Source of the DNA: an uncultured Alphaproteobacteria bacterium
GTDB lineage: Bacteria; Pseudomonadota; Alphaproteobacteria; RF32; CAG-239
NCBI GenBank assembly: GCA_944391465.1
Contig: CALXTS010000001.1
Span: forward strand, 26,441-90,440
Direction of reading: 5' to 3'
DNA: 64,000 nucleotides
Position 1 is the first letter of the stretch; each line of letters starts with the position of its first letter. Positions 13,512 to 23,593 of the stretch are shown piece by piece. The notes beneath the pieces were generated by a model. That model had not been told where the DNA came from. It was given only the letters and a program-made list of their open reading frames with translations, and did not search any database. The translations under genes were made by a program, and so were the position numbers.

Positions 13512-14600
13512 CTATTTTTGCTTTTTCTCTTTGGTTAAAGCCGTCTTTACGGCTCGTCTTGCCGAAAGGATAGCCGCCTCAATGGAACATGGGAAATCTT
13601 TCATTGTCCAGTCTCCGGCAATAAACATATTTCCATATTTTGTTTGTGCGTTTTCAGGGCGGAGAATATTGTTATATACATCTTGTGCGATGGTTGCGTT
13701 TTGGTGAATAATAACTTTATGTGGAGGTAAAAAAGCTGAATTTACTCCACGAAGGATATCTAGTTGTTTCCAAAGTCTTTCGGGGAGGGCTTTTATTTCT
13801 TCAACTGTCATGCGAGCATCAGAAATTGTGAATGAAACAATATCTTCATTAATAAATACCCAATCGGCTAATCCGTTTATTATTCCCATATAGCCGGCTA
13901 ATTTAGGTAAATTTATTTCTTGTGACGTGCGAAAATGAACGTTGATTATGCTGTTAAAAGTAAAATCGCGACTTTGAAATATTTTTGAATAAGCAGCTGC
14001 GTCTAAAGCAACAATAACAATATCATTTTTATCTAACTCCAATATTCCTTTATTGAAGTGTAAGGTTGCTATTTTTCCAAATTCTACACCTACACTTTCT
14101 AAGCGATGTCCGTATTTTATTTCATCTGCGTAGATAAGCATTGGATTAATTAATCTTTGTGTTAAATCATTTTTTGAAAAATAGACGCCGAGTTGGTGTT
14201 TGCTCCACGGAAAAAGTTTCCAGCAGATATTTTTTATCATTTTGCGGGGAATATCTTCGGCTTGAGTGTTGCACATTGATTTGAGTATTTGTCGATGGTA
14301 TTTGAAAATTTTGCTGGTAATGGTGTCTTTTTCTGCATCCCAAAAGTAGGTTTGGGACGGCCAGCGATGAACTCCGGTCAGAGCTGAAGCCATTCTGTTT
14401 CCTCGCAAAATTACATGTGTCGCATTATCTAAGCGGCACCCCATTTCTTTGTCATCATATGAATAACAGCGTCCTCCGGGACGATTGTTTGCTTCATAGA
14501 TAATAATTTTGCTTTGCGGGCGTTGTTTTCTTAGAAAACGTGAACACATCAATCCGGCAATTCCGGCTCCTATAATATGATATGTCGGTTGGTTTGGCAT
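13512..14600 (-). CDS. hpnE: Squalene-associated FAD-dependent desaturase (hydroxysqualene dehydroxylase) HpnE.
   Basis: An N-terminal dinucleotide-binding motif (HIIGAGIAGLMCS) and amine-oxidase-like architecture. It is the third gene after two squalene/phytoene-synthase paralogues. Confidence 0.7.
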   Translation of the reverse strand: MPNQPTYHIIGAGIAGLMCSRFLRKQRPQSKIIIYEANNRPGGRCYSYDDKEMGCRLDNATHVILRGNRMASALTGVHRWPSQTYFWDAEKDTITSKIFKYHRQILKSMCNTQAEDIPRKMIKNICWKLFPWSKHQLGVYFSKNDLTQRLINPMLIYADEIKYGHRLESVGVEFGKIATLHFNKGILELDKNDIVIVALDAAAYSKIFQSRDFTFNSIINVHFRTSQEINLPKLAGYMGIINGLADWVFINEDIVSFTISDARMTVEEIKALPERLWKQLDILRGVNSAFLPPHKVIIHQNATIAQDVYNNILRPENAQTKYGNMFIAGDWTMKDFPCSIEAAILSARRAVKTALTKEKKQK

Positions 14601-14602
14601 TA

Positions 14603-15436
14603 TTATTTTTCCATATAGGCTTTGAGTGTCAAACAGAGTTTTAAAAATTTACTGACTTTTGGTTTGGGCGATATTATCTCCCATCCACGATTTTGCATGA
14701 TATCAAAATATCTTTTATAAACATATGCAATAGCTTTTACCGGACGGGCTATTTTTTTATCAAGTTTCTTTATTTGTCTGAAAGCCTCTTGATAATATTC
14801 ATCGGCAAGTTGAGCAAGATCCTCTCGAGCAATAGCTAAGTTTTTATCGACAACAACAGTCATCGGGTCCCTGGATATTATTCCCGCTTTTCGCAAGCAT
14901 TCTTCAGGGATGTAGAGCCGTTGCGCCATGGCGTCTTCTTTTACGTCACGTAAAATATTGGTAATTTGCAAAGCTGTTCCCAGCGAGGTGGACAAGTTTT
15001 CGATTTGTTTTTCGTCTTTGCATCCAAAAATTCTTAAAGATAAATTTCCGGGAACGCCGGCAACTCCTCGGCAATAACGTTTAAAATCTTCCATTGACGG
15101 GGCTTGAATAGGAAAGGGGAGATCCATGGCTATACTATCTATCATACGGATAAACTCTTCTTTGGGAAGACCAAATCTCATACAGTTTTTGTAAATGCGA
15201 CGGCCAATATCCGTGCTGGGCTGTTTTTTATCAAAAATATTGTCCATCTCTTCTCGCCAGTCGTTGATTATTTCCAGTTTTTCTTCAACACTGTCATTGC
15301 CGTCAACAATGTCATCTAAATGCCGAAACAAGGCGTATATGGTAAACATGGCATTGCGACGGGCGCGAGGCAAGAAACGCATGCTCCAAAAAAAAGATGT
15401 TCCTGATTTTTTTACCATGTTTTTGATGTTATTCAT
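14603..15436 (-). CDS. hpnD: Squalene/phytoene synthase family protein, probably presqualene diphosphate synthase HpnD. The start is taken at the internal MNNIKNM, which avoids overlap with the upstream gene.
   Basis: Trans-isoprenyl diphosphate synthase head-to-head motifs (YALFRHLDDIVDG; ...NILRDVKEDA). It is the second gene of the operon. Confidence 0.7.
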   Translation of the reverse strand: MNNIKNMVKKSGTSFFWSMRFLPRARRNAMFTIYALFRHLDDIVDGNDSVEEKLEIINDWREEMDNIFDKKQPSTDIGRRIYKNCMRFGLPKEEFIRMIDSIAMDLPFPIQAPSMEDFKRYCRGVAGVPGNLSLRIFGCKDEKQIENLSTSLGTALQITNILRDVKEDAMAQRLYIPEECLRKAGIISRDPMTVVVDKNLAIAREDLAQLADEYYQEAFRQIKKLDKKIARPVKAIAYVYKRYFDIMQNRGWEIISPKPKVSKFLKLCLTLKAYMEK

Positions 15437-16299
15437 TTTATTGTTCCGACAGTTCTTTTTCTGGTAAATAACCCTCTCATTCCTCCGATTATGGATGATT
15501 TTATCCAATCAGTACGGGATAGTTTAATTTCTTGTGAGAGAATATCATTCTTTTGTAGTTTTTTTATCATACAATTAGTTAAAGAAAGTATAATTCCGAG
15601 TTCTATTTTCAAACGTTTGTTTTTTACAATTGAGGGAAGAAGCTCGGCATCTTTGAGCATGGATTGTTGGCGGGCGAGAATTTCATTTTTGAGTTCTGTA
15701 AGCCCTGGTGTACTGTATGTCAGGTACAAATCACTATCTTGGACATCATAATGTTTACACATATCTTCAGGTAGATATATGCGTCGTAGCATCATCGCGT
15801 CATATTTTATATCTTGGATGTGGTTGACGATTTGTAGGACGGTACATAGTGTTGCGGCCGGAAGATAGGTTGATGGATTTTCATTGTGAATGGCCAACAT
15901 AAAACGTCCGACCGGTACTGCTGAATAGTTGCAATAATCTATGAGTTCATCCCAAATCCGAGGTCTGATATTCTCAGCATCTCGACGGAAGGCTTTTAAT
16001 AAATCCGTATAAAGTGAGGCGTCTAAATTTTCAGATTTAAATAACTGTCCGAGGGCACTGGCTTCGGTACTTGCTTTATTTTTTTGGGGATTTAAAAATG
16101 CTGTTTCATATTGGTTTAGAAGGTGTAATTTTTCGTCCGGACTTAATTCATTATTATCCGCAATATCATCGGCACTGCGCGCTGCTTTGTAATATGCCAT
16201 GACTAAAGGGCGCAGTTTTTTATTTATAAATTTACCGACGGTAAAATTTTCATCAGGTGCATTTTTTTTGCGTATTTTGTTCATATTGCCTCCAGCCAT
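15433..16299 (-). CDS. hpnC: Squalene/phytoene synthase family protein, probably hydroxysqualene synthase HpnC.
   Basis: ENFTVG near the N-terminus, [14 protein letters not shown] and [12 protein letters not shown] motifs. It is the first gene of the hpn operon. Confidence 0.7.
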
Positions 16300-17630: not shown

Positions 17631-17775
17631 TTTTATTACCTTCTTTATTTATGTTGGGTTTTTTATAAATTTATTCTTATCAAATGTAAATAAAAACTTC
17701 TTATGATAAGTTGTGCTTAATGTTTGCTATATTGAATTAAACTTAGTATATTTTATAAAAAATTGGCTGATTTTA

Positions 17776-18972
17776 ATGATGAATAAAAAGTTTTGTTTAT
17801 ATATATCAGGAGCATTGTGCTTTGCTTTTTTCTCTTCAATGGCTTTTGCCAGTGAAGACAGCGTGCCGTATATGTATGGCGGTGCGGTTAATTATGAGCA
17901 ACTTGAAATGGTAAATGCTCAGATGAGCAAAACTAAACCGGAATTTGAACAAGGCGATATTTTTGGTGCGGATACGTTTGATATCGGTGATGAAACACCT
18001 GTTTTGCCTCCTGAAAATAAACAAGAAGATATAACATCCGGTACGGAGTTGCCTTCACCAAATGCGACTCCTGAAGTTCCTATGCTTCAAGCTGATTCAG
18101 ATTCTCAAAAAGAACAGAAACTGCCGGAAAAAGAACTTAATCAGGAAAGTTTGAGTGAGAATTTTTCTGATACGGATGTTGCAGAAGAAAATGCTTTTGC
18201 CGGAGAGGAAGATTTCCTTTTATCCGAAGAAACAGCTGATGCCGGAAACAAGCAAACCTGGATTGATAAGATTTCAAGTGAGAAAGCTCTTTCTAAGTTT
18301 AAGGATTTATCATCAGGAGAAGATAGTTTGGAGGATTTGGTTGATAAGGCGCGTTCCGGAACTAATAAACGTTCAAATGCTTCGGTTTTTGATATTTCCG
18401 GTTTGATGTTACGTATGACTCTCAAGCAAGTTGATGGTATTATGCAAAACAGAGGGTTTAAAAAGGTTATGGAACGTCTTGAAATCCCTAATTTTATAAA
18501 ATGGAGAAATGAAGAAAAATGCCGAAACAGCGGTGTTGTCGGTTATGAAAGGTTGGAGGCCTGTGTGATACAAAAAGCTAAAGAAGACAAACATCAATAT
18601 GTGCAACATACAAAGTATGCCAAATATGATACAAAAGAAGAGATTGAGGTTTTCTTTACCAGTAATTTTACGGATAATAAGGCTTATAAAATTATGTATC
18701 AGAGTATGGCTTCGGCTCTTACCGGAAACAGTCCTAAGGCTATGTATCTTTACAATATAAAAGTTTATGATTTTTGGAGGCGAATTAATCGTAAATATGG
18801 GGTTCCCGATAATAAACAGATGGTTACATGGGGCTTGGGTAACGGAAAAGCCTATCTTAAAGCAAAAACCGGAGAATTGGTTTTGGAAGATCCTATGTTT
18901 AGGGAGCTTGATTATACGAGAATGTCACGCGAAGATCAGCGATATTTGGCAACGGATTTGTATAGTTTTTAA
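17776..18972 (+). CDS. Hypothetical secreted protein with an acidic low-complexity N-terminal region. The start is the internal MMNKKF, where the signal peptide begins.
   Basis: Signal peptide MMNKKFCLYISGALCFAFFSSMAFA, followed by a D/E/S-rich stretch. Confidence 0.55.
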   Translation: MMNKKFCLYISGALCFAFFSSMAFASEDSVPYMYGGAVNYEQLEMVNAQMSKTKPEFEQGDIFGADTFDIGDETPVLPPENKQEDITSGTELPSPNATPEVPMLQADSDSQKEQKLPEKELNQESLSENFSDTDVAEENAFAGEEDFLLSEETADAGNKQTWIDKISSEKALSKFKDLSSGEDSLEDLVDKARSGTNKRSNASVFDISGLMLRMTLKQVDGIMQNRGFKKVMERLEIPNFIKWRNEEKCRNSGVVGYERLEACVIQKAKEDKHQYVQHTKYAKYDTKEEIEVFFTSNFTDNKAYKIMYQSMASALTGNSPKAMYLYNIKVYDFWRRINRKYGVPDNKQMVTWGLGNGKAYLKAKTGELVLEDPMFRELDYTRMSREDQRYLATDLYSF

Positions 18973-18992
18973 TATTGAAAGAGTTTAGTAAA

Positions 18993-19607
18993 ATGAGTAA
19001 TGAATTGTCATCTGTTGAAATTGCCGAATTGATTTGTACCCGTATAAGTCATGATCTTGTCGGAAATGTCGGAGTTATTGCAAATGGTGTGGAATTGTTG
19101 GAAGAGGGTGATGTCGAGTTTTTAGATGATATTCGCTCTATTTTTAAAACGGGTTCCGGAGTTTTAGCGTCTCGTCTTAAATTTTTTCGGCTTGCTTTCG
19201 GACTAAATAACACTAATCTTGAAGATTTTGATTTTGTAAAGGAAATTGTAAATAACTATCTTCAGACACTTGGAAATAAAAATTATCCGATAATGCTTGA
19301 TTGGAAATTGGAAAATTCAACCTATACTAAAGCTGTTTTGGTTATGATTATGATTATGTCCGATATTTTTATTAGAGGTGGAAAAATTAACGTTGTTTCT
19401 GAAAATGGACGGGTTAGGGTATTTCCGATTTCTGATTATTCAATGTCAGATGAGAAAATAAAAACAGTAAAAAATATTTTAAATGGTGAAGAGACTGAAC
19501 CTTCGGCGCAATATGCTCCGGTTTATTTTTTAATTTCTTTATTAAGGAAACAAAAAATTAATCTTTATGTTATAAATTCCCCGAACTTGGAATTGGTAGT
19601 GGAGTAA
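18993..19607 (+). CDS. chpT: Histidine phosphotransferase ChpT. The ORF track starts at a TTG at 18975; an ATG at 18993 with an upstream AAAGAG is preferred.
   Basis: RISHDLVGNVGVIANGVELLEE ... SRLKFFRLAFG and MLDWKLE align well with the Caulobacter ChpT (RLCHDFISPASAIVSGLDLLED ... LLQFTRVAFG ... TLDWQIE). Confidence 0.8.
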   Translation: MSNELSSVEIAELICTRISHDLVGNVGVIANGVELLEEGDVEFLDDIRSIFKTGSGVLASRLKFFRLAFGLNNTNLEDFDFVKEIVNNYLQTLGNKNYPIMLDWKLENSTYTKAVLVMIMIMSDIFIRGGKINVVSENGRVRVFPISDYSMSDEKIKTVKNILNGEETEPSAQYAPVYFLISLLRKQKINLYVINSPNLELVVE

Positions 19608-20921: not shown

Positions 20922-20957
20922 AAAATCCGTCGGAACGTTAATTCCGACGGATTTTTA
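20922..20957 (+). terminator. Rho-independent terminator after cheR.
   Basis: aaaatccgtcggaa / cgttaa / ttccgacggatttt followed by T5. Confidence 0.8.
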
Positions 20958-21182
20958 CTTGCTGCAATAAATTTTGTCCTTAGGATAAAATTATTTGTTG
21001 ACTCTGTGTTTTTGATGGGATATACTGAAGGAGTAATATGCTGGCGGATATTTTTAATGTTTAAGGATATTCGCATACTATGAACATATAAATAACTCTG
21101 ATAATATAAATATATTTTGGCGCCACCGAAATATAAATCTCCGTCCGTATATTACCTCAGTTTATTATTGAGGAGAACGGAC

Positions 21183-22271
21183 ATGCAGAAGCATATACAT
21201 CTTATTTCAGTATTCATCCTTAGTCTTTTTTTATTTATCTGCAAAGCCCAAGCGGCAGTTTTGTTTCTTCCTCATGCAAATTACGGATATGCGGAAACTT
21301 GTCTTCGTTTAGGTATGACCGATACGATGCGCAGCGGTTATGTCTGCGAGCAAAAAAGCGTTATTGATGAAATGAACAAAGAAAAGATAACGGTATGTTA
21401 TAAGAACTGTCGTGCGCAAAGCTGTAAAATCATCAATTCAAGTTACAAAACAAGTTCCGAGAAAAGTTCATATGAGATGAAAGGTTATAACTGTACGGAG
21501 AGTTCTGAGAAAAGTATCAGCGGCTCATGTTACAAGTGTGATTGTGATAACGGAAACGTTAAGAACGGTTATTGTTTATGTAGCTCAGGATATAGTCGCA
21601 AACAAGTTGACGGGGCATGGAGTTGTGTTTGTGAGGCGGTTGACCATAAAGAACTGATAAATGGCGCGTGTCGGTGTTCATCTGGTTATGTTATGGACGA
21701 CAAGAACAACTGTATTTGTGACGGAAGCGTCAATAAAGAAATTAAAGCCGACGGAAGTTGCGGCTGTATAGCCGGCACGGCGGAACAATCGGACGGAAGT
21801 TGTAAGAAGGTTGAATGTTTATCGGGTTATTATTTAGATAATTCGACCTGTATGGCGTGTCCGGAAGGGAGTTACAGTGAGGCTGGTTCGATTGGTATAG
21901 ACAGTTGTGAATACTGTCCGGAAGGTTACACGTTAGGATTAGGCAATTGCGAAAAAGAAGAGCATCCGGAAGGATTTGAATACAGTAACGCGGTAGATTC
22001 CAACAATATGCCGATATATTTGGGAAATCGGATATGCGGGAAGTGTGAAGAAAAGAAATGTACGGAACCGTACGGAAAGATAGACAGTTGTTCCGATGAC
22101 ACGAAAGCGCTTTTTTATAACGGAGAATATGCAGGAAACACGGCGTGCGGAGCATGTATCCAAATCAAGTGTGCGGAAGGCAAGATAGATTATGAGGCGT
22201 GTTATGAGGAAAGCGGCATAAACTACGGTGCGATTTCTGCGTGGGTATCCATGGGCAGTTTGGTTGAATAG
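21183..22271 (+). CDS. Secreted cysteine-rich repeat protein with ephrin-receptor-like / GCC2-GCC3-type CxxCPxGxY modules. The start is MQKHIHL, which has a GAGGAG RBS.
   Basis: Signal peptide (LISVFILSLFLFICKAQA) and more than 50 Cys residues in repeated CxC...SGY and C..CPEGSYS / CEYCPEGYT modules. Confidence 0.65.
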   Translation: MQKHIHLISVFILSLFLFICKAQAAVLFLPHANYGYAETCLRLGMTDTMRSGYVCEQKSVIDEMNKEKITVCYKNCRAQSCKIINSSYKTSSEKSSYEMKGYNCTESSEKSISGSCYKCDCDNGNVKNGYCLCSSGYSRKQVDGAWSCVCEAVDHKELINGACRCSSGYVMDDKNNCICDGSVNKEIKADGSCGCIAGTAEQSDGSCKKVECLSGYYLDNSTCMACPEGSYSEAGSIGIDSCEYCPEGYTLGLGNCEKEEHPEGFEYSNAVDSNNMPIYLGNRICGKCEEKKCTEPYGKIDSCSDDTKALFYNGEYAGNTACGACIQIKCAEGKIDYEACYEESGINYGAISAWVSMGSLVE

Positions 22272-22292
22272 TAACAAGGACGGAGAAAGGCG

Positions 22293-23552
22293 ATGAAAGA
22301 TTACAGAAAGTATGCGTTATGGTATGGGGTTGGTTGTTTGATATTACCGCAAATAAGCTATGCGATGACTTGTGAAGAAGCTCCGGATTGTACGGCGCTC
22401 GGGTTTAAGGTTTCCGGCTCGGAGGTTAAGAGTAAGTGCAACGGATTGAGCCGAATGAAGTGTCCTTTCGGGGATTATTACTTCTGCTCCGAGAAAAAAT
22501 GCGAAGAAGATGATTATCCTTATACCAAAAGCAACTGCAGCTATACTCTTGCCGGAAGTACCTGTGAAGATGCACAAGGAACTCATTATAAGGAATGTAT
22601 TCAGTCTTGTGATACATCAAAATATCCTTATACGTCATCAAACTGTGAAGGTTCAGTTTCAGGAACGACGTGTAGAGACAGCAGCGGAACGCACTACAGT
22701 GCTTGTGTTTGTGGTTATACATATACCACCAGCAATTGCACTTCTCCTAAAGAACCAAGCGGAAAATCTTGTTATGACGGAACACAGTATAAACATGAAT
22801 ATTGTACATGTCCGAGCGATTATAAATATTATAGCTATACTTGTAGTGGTACCTTAGGCGGCGGTTCTTGTTGTAAAAGCGAAGATTATAGTGGGAAATG
22901 TATTAGTGAATCTTATAAATCTTGTGATTGCGGCGATGAATACAAATATACTATAGACAATTGTTCTGGTAATATCAGTGGCTCTATTTGTGTAAGTAGG
23001 TACGTTGATAACAGAATATCTAGTTATCCAGGAACCGATTATGCAACGGAGTGTTGCACAAGCGGATGTTGTATCGGATATTTTTACTATAGTGATGATA
23101 CTTGCGGAAAAGAAGAAACAAAATCAGGGACAAAAACTTTAGGAGTAGTGGTCGCTTCCGGAAAAGTATTAAATGTGGAAAAAAATGCAGTATCTCAAAT
23201 TAGTGCTATTGAAGATTTTACTTTGGCTTGCAGCATTTATAATGAAGGAGGAAAATCTTGGTATGCACCTTCCATCAGCGATTTACAATCAATCAGAATT
23301 GATATTTTGAATGCGGATGGAACTTATGATAATAATTTTAGAGAAACCGATTATTATATTTCTGCAACAGGAACTGCTTCTCAAATATACATGTATAAAG
23401 CAGCAAACACTTATACACACAAAGGTGGTGTATCTGCTACGAAAGGAATGGTGACGACAAAATCTTTACCTATAGAAGAAACTGGATATCAGCCAGATAT
23501 GAGTGATTATGTTGCAATACATGCATATGCCAGTTGTATGTTCAACTTTTGA
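22293..23552 (+). CDS. Secreted cysteine-rich protein with tandem ~35-aa YPYT-SNC...G-TC-D--GTHY--C modules and a non-Cys C-terminal domain of about 150 aa.
   Basis: Signal peptide (YALWYGVGCLILPQISYA). The module is repeated at least three times (DDYPYTKSNCSYTLAGSTCEDAQGTHYKEC; SKYPYTSSNCEGSVSGTTCRDSSGTHYSAC; YTYTTSNCTSPKEPSGKSCYDGTQYKHEYC). Confidence 0.65.
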   Translation: MKDYRKYALWYGVGCLILPQISYAMTCEEAPDCTALGFKVSGSEVKSKCNGLSRMKCPFGDYYFCSEKKCEEDDYPYTKSNCSYTLAGSTCEDAQGTHYKECIQSCDTSKYPYTSSNCEGSVSGTTCRDSSGTHYSACVCGYTYTTSNCTSPKEPSGKSCYDGTQYKHEYCTCPSDYKYYSYTCSGTLGGGSCCKSEDYSGKCISESYKSCDCGDEYKYTIDNCSGNISGSICVSRYVDNRISSYPGTDYATECCTSGCCIGYFYYSDDTCGKEETKSGTKTLGVVVASGKVLNVEKNAVSQISAIEDFTLACSIYNEGGKSWYAPSISDLQSIRIDILNADGTYDNNFRETDYYISATGTASQIYMYKAANTYTHKGGVSATKGMVTTKSLPIEETGYQPDMSDYVAIHAYASCMFNF

Positions 23553-23565
23553 GATGTTTTATAAT

Positions 23566-23593
23566 CAAAAAGCCCCTCAAACGAGGGGCTTTG
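23566..23593. terminator. Bidirectional hairpin terminator between the Cys-rich gene and recA.
   Basis: aaaagcccctc / aaac / gaggggcttt. Confidence 0.55.

Follow-up and report, generated by a model that had tools for sequence, protein, structure and literature searches.

The 64-kb stretch of DNA analysed here (the window, on whose numbering all coordinates are given) stems from an uncultured alphaproteobacterium and carries, at 20966-23592, a self-contained operon consisting of a promoter, a structured leader, two genes for exported cysteine-rich proteins (whose products are called P1 and P2) and a terminator. The same cassette is mobile, being found in several other genomic contexts, and combines a constant P1 with a hypervariable, mosaic P2. 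Matching contigs or loci bear labels from L001 to L094, and related proteins are labelled with a P and four digits. The operon comprises the following elements:

20922-20955, + strand: intrinsic terminator of cheR, a perfect stem of 14 bp with a T-run behind it (dG -20.2 kcal/mol, z -6.1)
20998-21026, + strand: sigma-70-like promoter of the P1-P2 operon, TTGACT-17-TATACT, matching the consensus at 10/12 positions
21027-21182, + strand: structured 5' leader (minimum free energy z -3.6 in the window and z -3.4 for the leader of L087)
21183-22271, + strand: P1, 362 aa, exported, 34 Cys in the mature form; an open reading frame (ORF) whose exact protein is called on metagenome contigs
22293-23552, + strand: P2, 419 aa, exported, with 33 Cys, an odd number, after signal-peptide removal; based on the ORF, homologues and allele analysis
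22700-23560, + strand: hypervariable mosaic region of P2, delimited by the drop in identity to L085
23569-23592, both strands: bidirectional terminator common to P2 and the convergent recA, and 3' end of the cassette; 10-bp stem with 6 GC pairs

An earlier note, made from the sequence of this region, had described two tandem ORFs with signal peptides and ribosome-binding sites lying between two terminators, and this description holds: both genes are on the + strand, and the pair is enclosed by the hairpins listed above. Its neighbours in the window are cheY, cheR, recA, brkB/yihY, fabI, sppA and gatCAB.

Operon structure and leader

Shine-Dalgarno sequences precede both genes (GAGGAG 7 nt before the ATG of P1, GGAG before the ATG of P2). 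The ATG at 21183 is also the start called on independent metagenome contigs. An alternative TTG start of P1 at 21117 is unlikely, as the ATG at 21183 has both the GAGGAG and a classical signal peptide (MQKHIHLISVFILSLFLFICKAQA/AV, the slash marking the cleavage site). The junction AQA/AVLFLPHAN is invariant among P1 homologues, and AxA/MTC is kept in all P2 variants despite differing h-regions.

The TTGAC box of the promoter is kept in all four genomic contexts, and the -10 hexamer differs in the lineage whose P1 is 70% identical. Leader length is ~155 nt in the window versus ~230 nt in that lineage (see also L087 6660-6876 and L092 ~1010-1235). Both lineages keep two boxes that are complementary to each other, GTAATATGC and G(C/T)ATATTACC, and the Shine-Dalgarno sequence of P1 sits inside a leader hairpin. 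Searches against Rfam returned no family match for the leader, and a run of RNAalifold with four leaders, in which the 3' box was misaligned, gave no information. The segment may be a regulatory leader. At the other end of the operon, L086 and L003 have the same terminator hairpin after P2, with different genes further downstream.

A constant P1 next to a mosaic P2

The contrast between the two genes, found at several loci, is the main new result and the most distinctive property of the pair, and was missed in the earlier note. Over 16.8 kb, L085 and the window share 99-100% nucleotide identity except inside P2. There it drops to 70-90% and indels occur, and full (100%) identity resumes immediately behind the stop codon. 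The P1 of the window has 99% identity to those of L085 and L086 and 70% to that of L087. P2, in contrast, is only 76% identical in L085, and its C-terminal two-thirds are different in L086. Within P2 itself the N-terminal 140 aa are conserved and the remainder is hypervariable. Among four full-length alleles, the first 140 codons have a synonymous divergence (dS) of 0.05-0.16 and a ratio of nonsynonymous to synonymous divergence (dN/dS) of 0.09-0.18, and the variable part has a dS of 0.35-0.8 and a dN/dS of 0.3-0.6. Such a dS shows that the alleles are old and not freshly mutated. Sites in the same alleles fall into the three possible 2-2 partitions in similar numbers (31/27/17) and are spatially clustered (permutation p<1e-4), and the P2 of the window is 99% identical to that of L093 at 23145-23235 and ~60% identical at 22833-22968. 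Near-equal, clustered partitions together with this patchy identity make P2 a recombinational mosaic.

All P2 ORFs are intact despite 24% amino-acid divergence. Cys columns are conserved in 14/14, 14/17 and 3/3 cases in three regions of the protein, and 45-53% of the other columns in the variable part differ. Conserved Cys columns with varying residues between them characterise a disulfide scaffold on which the loops vary, and the pattern in the first two of these regions rules out that the repeats are generic low-complexity sequence, which the earlier note had named as the outcome that would overturn its reading. A recent duplication at the DNA level, raised in the same note, is likewise not seen, internal repeats being at most 30 nt long at ~70% identity. 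With the signal peptide removed, P2-type proteins have an odd number of Cys in 8/8 cases (25-37; variant set: the P2 of the window, P0003-P0009, L003, L086 and L087). Even counts are found in 4/5 P1 copies (that of L086 has 35) and in both P1-type single-chain relatives, P0010 and P0011. The odd count of P2 would fit a single intermolecular disulfide or a modified Cys.

A cassette found in several genomic contexts

Every locus at which P1 or P2 could be assigned a context has the two side by side, and the contexts number at least four:

cheR/recA context: the window, L085, L093 and L001
NTP-transferase/AsmA context: L086 and L094
tsf/rpsB context: L003
after ftsI, with P1 at 70% identity: L087-L090
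other context: L092

The DNA common to these contexts runs from 20966, just past the cheR terminator (L086 compared with the window), to the hairpin at 23569-23592. As it is bounded by terminators, it is the complete promoter-to-terminator unit that recurs. Several long contigs break at the cassette or within ~350 nt of it (L003 1-70, L094 1-136, L086 1-351 and L087 8738-8775), which is consistent with a repeated or strain-variable segment and hints at several cassette copies per genome. Elsewhere in the 64 kb of the window there is no paralogue of either protein.

RecA of the window is at most 87% identical to that of GTDB species representatives, the best two being metagenome-assembled genomes of uncultured Alphaproteobacteria. 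The recA neighbourhood of the closest relative (L005, RecA 87%) has no cassette. In L005 (3623-7029), where the cassette is absent, tsf, dnaJ and recA are neighbours; the cassette abuts tsf in L003 (1338-3160) and recA in the window. The sites of the cassette may be linked to rearrangements of the tsf/dnaJ/recA region.

Modules and relatives of P1

P1 is a chain of small modules, one of which belongs to a family known mostly from eukaryotes:

21183-21254, + strand: signal peptide, aa 1-24, Sec-type, cleavage ...CKAQA/AV, read from the sequence
21255-21527, + strand: N-terminal domain, aa 25-115, ending near ...SCYKCDC, from BLASTP to P0044
21528-21815, + strand: CxC beta-hairpin mini-repeats, EGF-like, aa 116-211, from Cys spacing
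21816-21950, + strand: Ephrin_rec_like/GCC2_GCC3 (TNFR-like) unit, aa 212-256, CLSGYYLDNSTCMACPEGSYSEAGSIGIDSCEYCPEGYTLGLGNC, from PF07699 on the excised segment
21915-22172, + strand: two copies of a ~40-aa 'CPxGYTxGLxNC...G..CGKCxxKxC' module, aa 245-330, from profile matches

Cys accounts for 35/362 residues (9.7%), less than the ~15% given in the earlier note; ~14% is reached only within aa 116-256. The N-terminal domain opens with AVLFLPH directly after the cleavage site, which reads WFLPDW or YWLPDY in relatives, and the FLP motif is found at the N-terminus of P0010, P0011, P0021, P0022, P0026, P0029, P0033, P0037 and P0044. The CxC mini-repeats have a period of ~14-16 aa and a super-period of ~29-32 aa. 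In the profile search this region matches P0016, a Teneurin-EGF/VWA protein (E 3e-9), and P0027, and by eye the segment CRCSSGYVMDDKNNC fits the signature C-x-C-x2-G-Y-x(4,8)-C. The EGF families cEGF, hEGF and EGF_TEN stay below their cut-offs on aa 116-211 (cEGF E 0.39, the others >0.9).

The claim of several Ephrin-receptor-like/GCC2_GCC3 modules stands for a genuine unit and falls for the plural, as there is a single unit of ~45 aa (aa 212-256). A Pfam scan of full-length P1 at E<=10 gives only PF23091, DPBB_1 and cEGF and does not report PF07699 (Ephrin_rec_like); PF23091 (TNFR_ELAPOR1_6th), a sister family of PF07699, covers aa 212-248 at 16.6 bits (cut-off 33.2 bits), and full-length P0002 gives only PF23091, at 20.3 bits. 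When aa 198-259 (62 aa) are excised, PF07699 matches with 25.6 bits and E 1e-5 over profile positions 1-36/48, above the gathering score of 23.1 bits. The orthologous segment of P0002 reaches 22.0 bits, just under this score. Comparison by hhalign of the P1 unit with the repeat units of P0012, a protein built wholly of Ephrin_rec_like units (E 1e-40), gives a probability of 96.9% and E 1.3e-10. An exhaustive profile search of 1.84 billion representative proteins found 23 distant matches, six of which (P0012, P0014, P0017, P0020, P0023 and P0025) are Ephrin_rec_like proteins with own PF07699 scores of E 1e-19 to 1e-49, and match P1 at aa ~195-260 with E 5e-13 to 1e-4.

AlphaFold2 (AF2) models aa 80-250 of P1 as serial beta-hairpins with a predicted local distance difference test score (pLDDT) of ~75. 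The best Foldseek matches in the PDB are RANK, CD40, Pfs28, EphB6, Elapor1 and EphA2/A4, all of them weak (E >=4e-3); RANK comes first with E 3.9e-3 and TM-scores of 0.18/0.33. Membership of the PF23091/TNFR-like fold does not follow from these searches, which gave 16.6-25.4 bits for PF23091 and no Foldseek match at E<=1e-3. P1 has no match in NCBIfam or among PDB sequences. The weak Pfam matches DPBB_1, Sushi_2, HisK_sensor and Imm47 from the scans of P1 and P2 were treated as chance.

Outside the Ephrin_rec_like unit, P1 resembles an unannotated secreted family formed by P0015, P0018, P0021, P0022, P0026, P0029, P0033, P0037 and P0044. Its members share a signal peptide, an N-terminal (W/Y)(F/W)LP(D/H), a 'CY.C.C' element and ~40-aa 'CPxGYTAGLxNC...GDxxCGKCTxKxC' repeats, followed by diverse, large C-terminal regions that look adhesin-like by eye and that in P0018 and P0044 give a sub-threshold Lcl_C match (E 1e-4). 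Based on the signal peptides and architecture, the family is presumably bacterial. P1 matches P0044 over aa 24-332 (BLASTP 1e-14), and in the profile search its positions 244-333 match P0015, P0018, P0022, P0026, P0029 and P0033. With this alignment to P0044, P1 counts as a short family member, having the signal peptide, FLP motif and repeats of the family along with significant pairwise similarity; the EGF-like CxC repeats and the Ephrin_rec_like unit are its extras. A group overlapping with this family (P0013, P0021, P0026, P0029, P0033, P0037 and P0044) consists of secreted proteins of 550-1570 aa, and the end of P0013 (...LGLKYNF) looks by eye like an outer-membrane beta-barrel.

Modules and relatives of P2

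P2 has a Cys content of 8.1% and is built from parts of a different type:

22293-22364, + strand: signal peptide, aa 1-24, Sec-type, cleavage SYA/MTC, read from the sequence
22365-22502, + strand: conserved N-terminal module (N-module), aa 25-70, MTCEEAPDCTALGFKV...RMKCPFGDYYFCSEKKC, from comparison of alleles and variants
22515-23054, + strand: five YPYT-type modules, aa 75-254, from a regular expression and the Cys spacing C-x8-C-x10-C
23055-23552, + strand: CC-x3-CC linker and Cys-poor C-terminal domain, aa 255-419, with weak Lcl_C/DUF1566 similarity

The N-module is nearly invariant in 8/8 variants, including those with unrelated C-termini. At least three YPYT-SNC...GTHY..C repeats had been claimed for P2. 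Five modules of YPYT type are present, which supports the number, but just two of them are canonical (aa 75-102 and 111-138), the others (aa 142-171, 177-211 and 217-254) being degenerate. The C-terminal ~150 aa, described earlier as Cys-free, are Cys-poor instead, with C271, C313 and C415 invariant among the alleles. This domain holds GYFYYSDDTCGKE...TLGVVVA and the motif KSWYAPSISDLQSI, and is possibly a divergent Lcl_C/DUF1566 (C-type-lectin-like) domain, a lead more than a finding. Searches of P2, N-module included, against Pfam, NCBIfam and the PDB gave no family match. A profile of P2 met a single chance match in the PDB (MerP-like, E 0.2), and among the toxin and immunity families of Pfam only Imm47 appeared, at chance level (E 0.086). 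Reading P2 by eye for the lipobox [LVI][ASTVI][GAS]C gave none: C27 is preceded by A-M-T, with a non-canonical T at -1, and C15 by G-V-G.

Nine relatives of P2 were found among 5.8 billion clusters, three of which are full-length alleles at 74-76% identity. Four have a P2-like signal peptide, the N-module (MTC[ED]xxPDCxALGFK...RMKCPFGD[YF]YFCSE) and 1-2 YPYT modules, followed by unrelated Cys-rich C-termini. In the remaining two (P0010 and P0011), YPYT modules stand behind a P1-type N-terminus (KVYWLPDYLG...). Patterns of the P2 family found no relative in GTDB species representatives, JGI metagenomes or viral contigs, and ~30 P1 sequences were found among 15 billion. Judged by these searches, the P1 and P2 genes are confined to a very small clade and have no curated family besides the single Ephrin_rec_like unit.

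A proposed variable extracellular assembly and its alternatives

The reading we favour, to which we give about an even chance, is that P1 and P2 form one extracellular or surface assembly in which the stalk and head of P2 are the exposed, ligand-binding and selected part. P1 would be the constant component, a rod of small beta-hairpin disulfide modules composed of EGF-like CxC repeats, one Ephrin_rec_like/TNFR-like unit and two 'GYTxGL...CGKC' units. The N-module of P2 and its two canonical YPYT repeats would dock to P1 or to the cell envelope, and P2 would continue as a variable repeat stalk and end in an exchangeable C-terminal head, which here is possibly lectin-like (Lcl_C/DUF1566-like). 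Homologous recombination would shuffle the P2 alleles among themselves and probably also among several copies of the cassette. As a role, that of a surface-exposed or secreted binding or adhesin complex would be most likely, and the exposed head of P2 would be subject to frequency-dependent selection exerted by host immunity, phage or the diversity of ligands. This reading builds on the Sec signals, the architecture of disulfide modules, the unbroken adjacency of P1 and P2 and the contrast of a constant P1 and P2 N-terminus with the mosaic remainder of P2. It is also supported by single-chain relatives that join the two kinds of part: P0010 and P0011 combine a P1-type N-terminus with YPYT repeats, and P0044 and P0018 combine a P1-type N-terminus with repeats and an Lcl_C-like C-terminus.

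Several observations count against such an assembly. The AF2 models help little, that of P1 being moderate in aa 80-250 and that of P2 unusable (pLDDT 29.5). An outer-membrane anchor, lipobox or dedicated secretion signal was not recognised in P1 or P2, so that both could remain periplasmic. The link of the head to Lcl_C is weak: hhalign aligns the P2 C-terminus with those of P0018 and P0015, which are Lcl_C-like, at E 4.5e-4 and a probability of only 33%, Pfam Lcl_C (PF07603) is sub-threshold on P2 (E 0.091, 13.5 bits against a cut-off of 34.9 bits, in 1/4 alleles), and HMMER alone gives a non-significant 8-11 bits on the first 40 positions of Lcl_C. Several copies per genome are suggested only by contigs that break inside the cassette, and dN/dS of P2 is <1 overall and thus gives no sign of positive selection.

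A more far-reaching form of the proposal, which we consider unlikely, would be a multi-locus variation system in which each genome holds several complete P1-P2 units at chromosomal sites unrelated to one another and shuffles stalk and head segments of P2 between them by gene conversion. Near-identical P1 genes and the conserved 5' ends of P2 would act as homology arms, and interchangeable, disulfide-scaffolded heads would be mounted on a constant P1 scaffold, perhaps linked by way of the one Cys that P2 leaves unpaired. The bearer would be an uncultured, possibly gut-dwelling alphaproteobacterium.

Alternatively, P1 and P2 could be structural, redox or metal-binding proteins of the periplasm or envelope, with the diversity of P2 reflecting relaxed constraint on a dispensable gene. 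The high Cys content, the dN/dS below 1, the tiny, lineage-restricted family and the lack of any recognised anchoring or secretion signal beyond Sec all fit such a role. Yet the Cys residues are spaced as in disulfide modules (EGF-, TNFR- and Ephrin_rec_like) and not as in metal clusters, the ORFs stay intact in all alleles and preserve their Cys at the divergence given above, mosaic recombination with sharp identity boundaries is typical of selected variable surface loci, and relatives bear varied, adhesin-like C-terminal regions; we hold this explanation to be unlikely. Somewhat less probable still is that P1 is a eukaryote-derived mimicry effector, acquired by horizontal gene transfer (HGT) from a host, which imitates Eph/TNFR-type receptor ectodomains to disturb host signalling. 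P1 does contain a genuine Ephrin_rec_like unit, its profile search reaches true Ephrin_rec_like repeat proteins and its top Foldseek matches include RANK, CD40, EphB6, EphA2/A4 and Elapor1; moreover, a eukaryotic origin is assumed for the domain, HGT being the explanation given for its scattered occurrence in bacteria (PMC6993872). This type of sequence covers just ~45/362 residues of P1, however, and the remainder aligns with presumably bacterial secreted modular proteins. The GC content of both genes (42% for P1 and 38% for P2, in a genome of ~37%) lies within the range of neighbouring genes, GC at third codon positions of P1 alone being slightly high, and every fold match has E >=4e-3 with low TM-scores. 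Export relies on a plain Sec signal, with no signal for a type III or type IV secretion system or other effector signal recognised, and nothing ties the genes to a host. The wider reading of the earlier note, in which eukaryote-like repeats of a putative symbiont are candidates for host interaction, is thus not borne out.

Conserved N-termini with swappable C-termini at several loci also resemble polymorphic toxin loci, which would make the N-terminus of P2 an export part, its variable C-terminus a toxin or bacteriocin-like domain, and P1 an accessory or delivery factor. In none of five contexts is there a gene after P2, where a terminator is followed by a convergent housekeeping gene, and therefore there is no immunity gene. 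Because, in addition, no toxin, immunity or defence family was detected in Pfam or NCBIfam (PADLOC was not among the libraries searched), we consider such a toxin system improbable, all the more as the variable C-termini consist of Cys-rich repeats or a lectin-like domain and P1 does not co-vary with P2. Finally, variability that is concentrated toward the C-terminus of a possibly lectin-like domain is also what targets of a diversity-generating retroelement (DGR) display, so P2 might owe its diversity to a DGR or another hypermutation mechanism. In the 64 kb, however, no part of P2 recurs as a template repeat (15 nt is the longest secondary match), the scanned flanking genes (cheY, cheR, recA, brkB and fabI) include no reverse transcriptase, and the differences in P2 include indels, span >1 kb and show high dS. 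On these grounds a DGR can be excluded with near certainty, and the mosaic blocks point to recombination instead.

Other genes of the window

On the - strand at 13512-16299, an amine-oxidase-type flavoprotein adjoins two ORFs of the squalene/phytoene-synthase family, an arrangement that resembles an hpnC/D/E-type squalene synthesis cluster. Directly upstream of cheY/cheR lie two ORFs on the + strand with no Pfam match, at 17713-18972 (419 aa) and 18975-19607 (210 aa). The 210-aa ORF has, by eye, a histidine-phosphotransferase-like HDLVGNVG motif.

Comparison with known systems

If the favoured reading of P1 and P2 as a variable extracellular assembly is right, the cassette would represent a route, specific to one lineage of poorly known, uncultured Alphaproteobacteria, to variable extracellular binding proteins made of small disulfide modules. 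The P2 locus is a sharp strain marker and a candidate interface with host immunity, phage or glycans, of modest practical value until its localisation and ligand are known. The analysis also defines a wider unannotated secreted protein family alongside two new module types, and adds a bacterial case to the mostly eukaryotic Ephrin_rec_like domain, in a presumably bacterial modular context and not as a wholesale transfer.

The Ephrin_rec_like domain is described as eukaryotic, and its rare occurrences in bacteria have been attributed to HGT (PMC6993872). Like PF07699, aa 212-256 of P1 have the pattern C..C..G.Y....C..CP.G.Y......G.....C..CP.G, and the predicted fold of P1 is one of stacked, disulfide-bonded beta-hairpins as in the TNFR-like modules PF23091 and PF00020 (TNFR_c6). 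P1 differs in having one unit instead of an array, in combining it with modules of different types and in being a Sec-exported bacterial protein. With respect to the P0044-like family, whose 550-900-aa members carry a large functional C-terminal region, Lcl_C-like or other, on the same chain, P1 ends after the repeats, and a separate gene, that of P2, would provide stalk and head.

In the Lcl protein of Legionella, the DUF1566 domain is a C-type-lectin-like head on a repetitive stalk that binds glycosaminoglycans (PMC11162425). P2 is similar in its repetitive stalk and C-terminal head, and its C-terminus has the hallmark W-x-x-P-S-x-x-x-L and weak profile similarity. The C-terminal domain of Lcl is without disulfides (PMC11162425), whereas the P2 domain keeps three invariant Cys. 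The stalk of P2 also consists of disulfide modules instead of collagen repeats, and the similarity to Lcl_C is sub-threshold.

Surface proteins that vary through recombination are well known, for example from the gene conversion of pilins or of Msp2-type proteins and from mosaic adhesin alleles. The P1-P2 cassette resembles them in pairing a conserved 5' with a hypervariable 3' part, in its mosaic blocks, in having old alleles within genomes that are otherwise identical and in the presence of related cassettes at several loci. It differs from them in that no silent or promoterless donor cassettes were seen, each copy being complete with its own P1, and in that its variation is known from comparison between strains. 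Bacterial surface or binding proteins that have a repeat stalk and vary through recombination are, as such, a known kind of system. The P2 N-module and the YPYT repeat are two module types without a curated family, and the arrangement of a constant and a variable gene as a two-gene cassette at several loci is, to our knowledge, described here for the first time.

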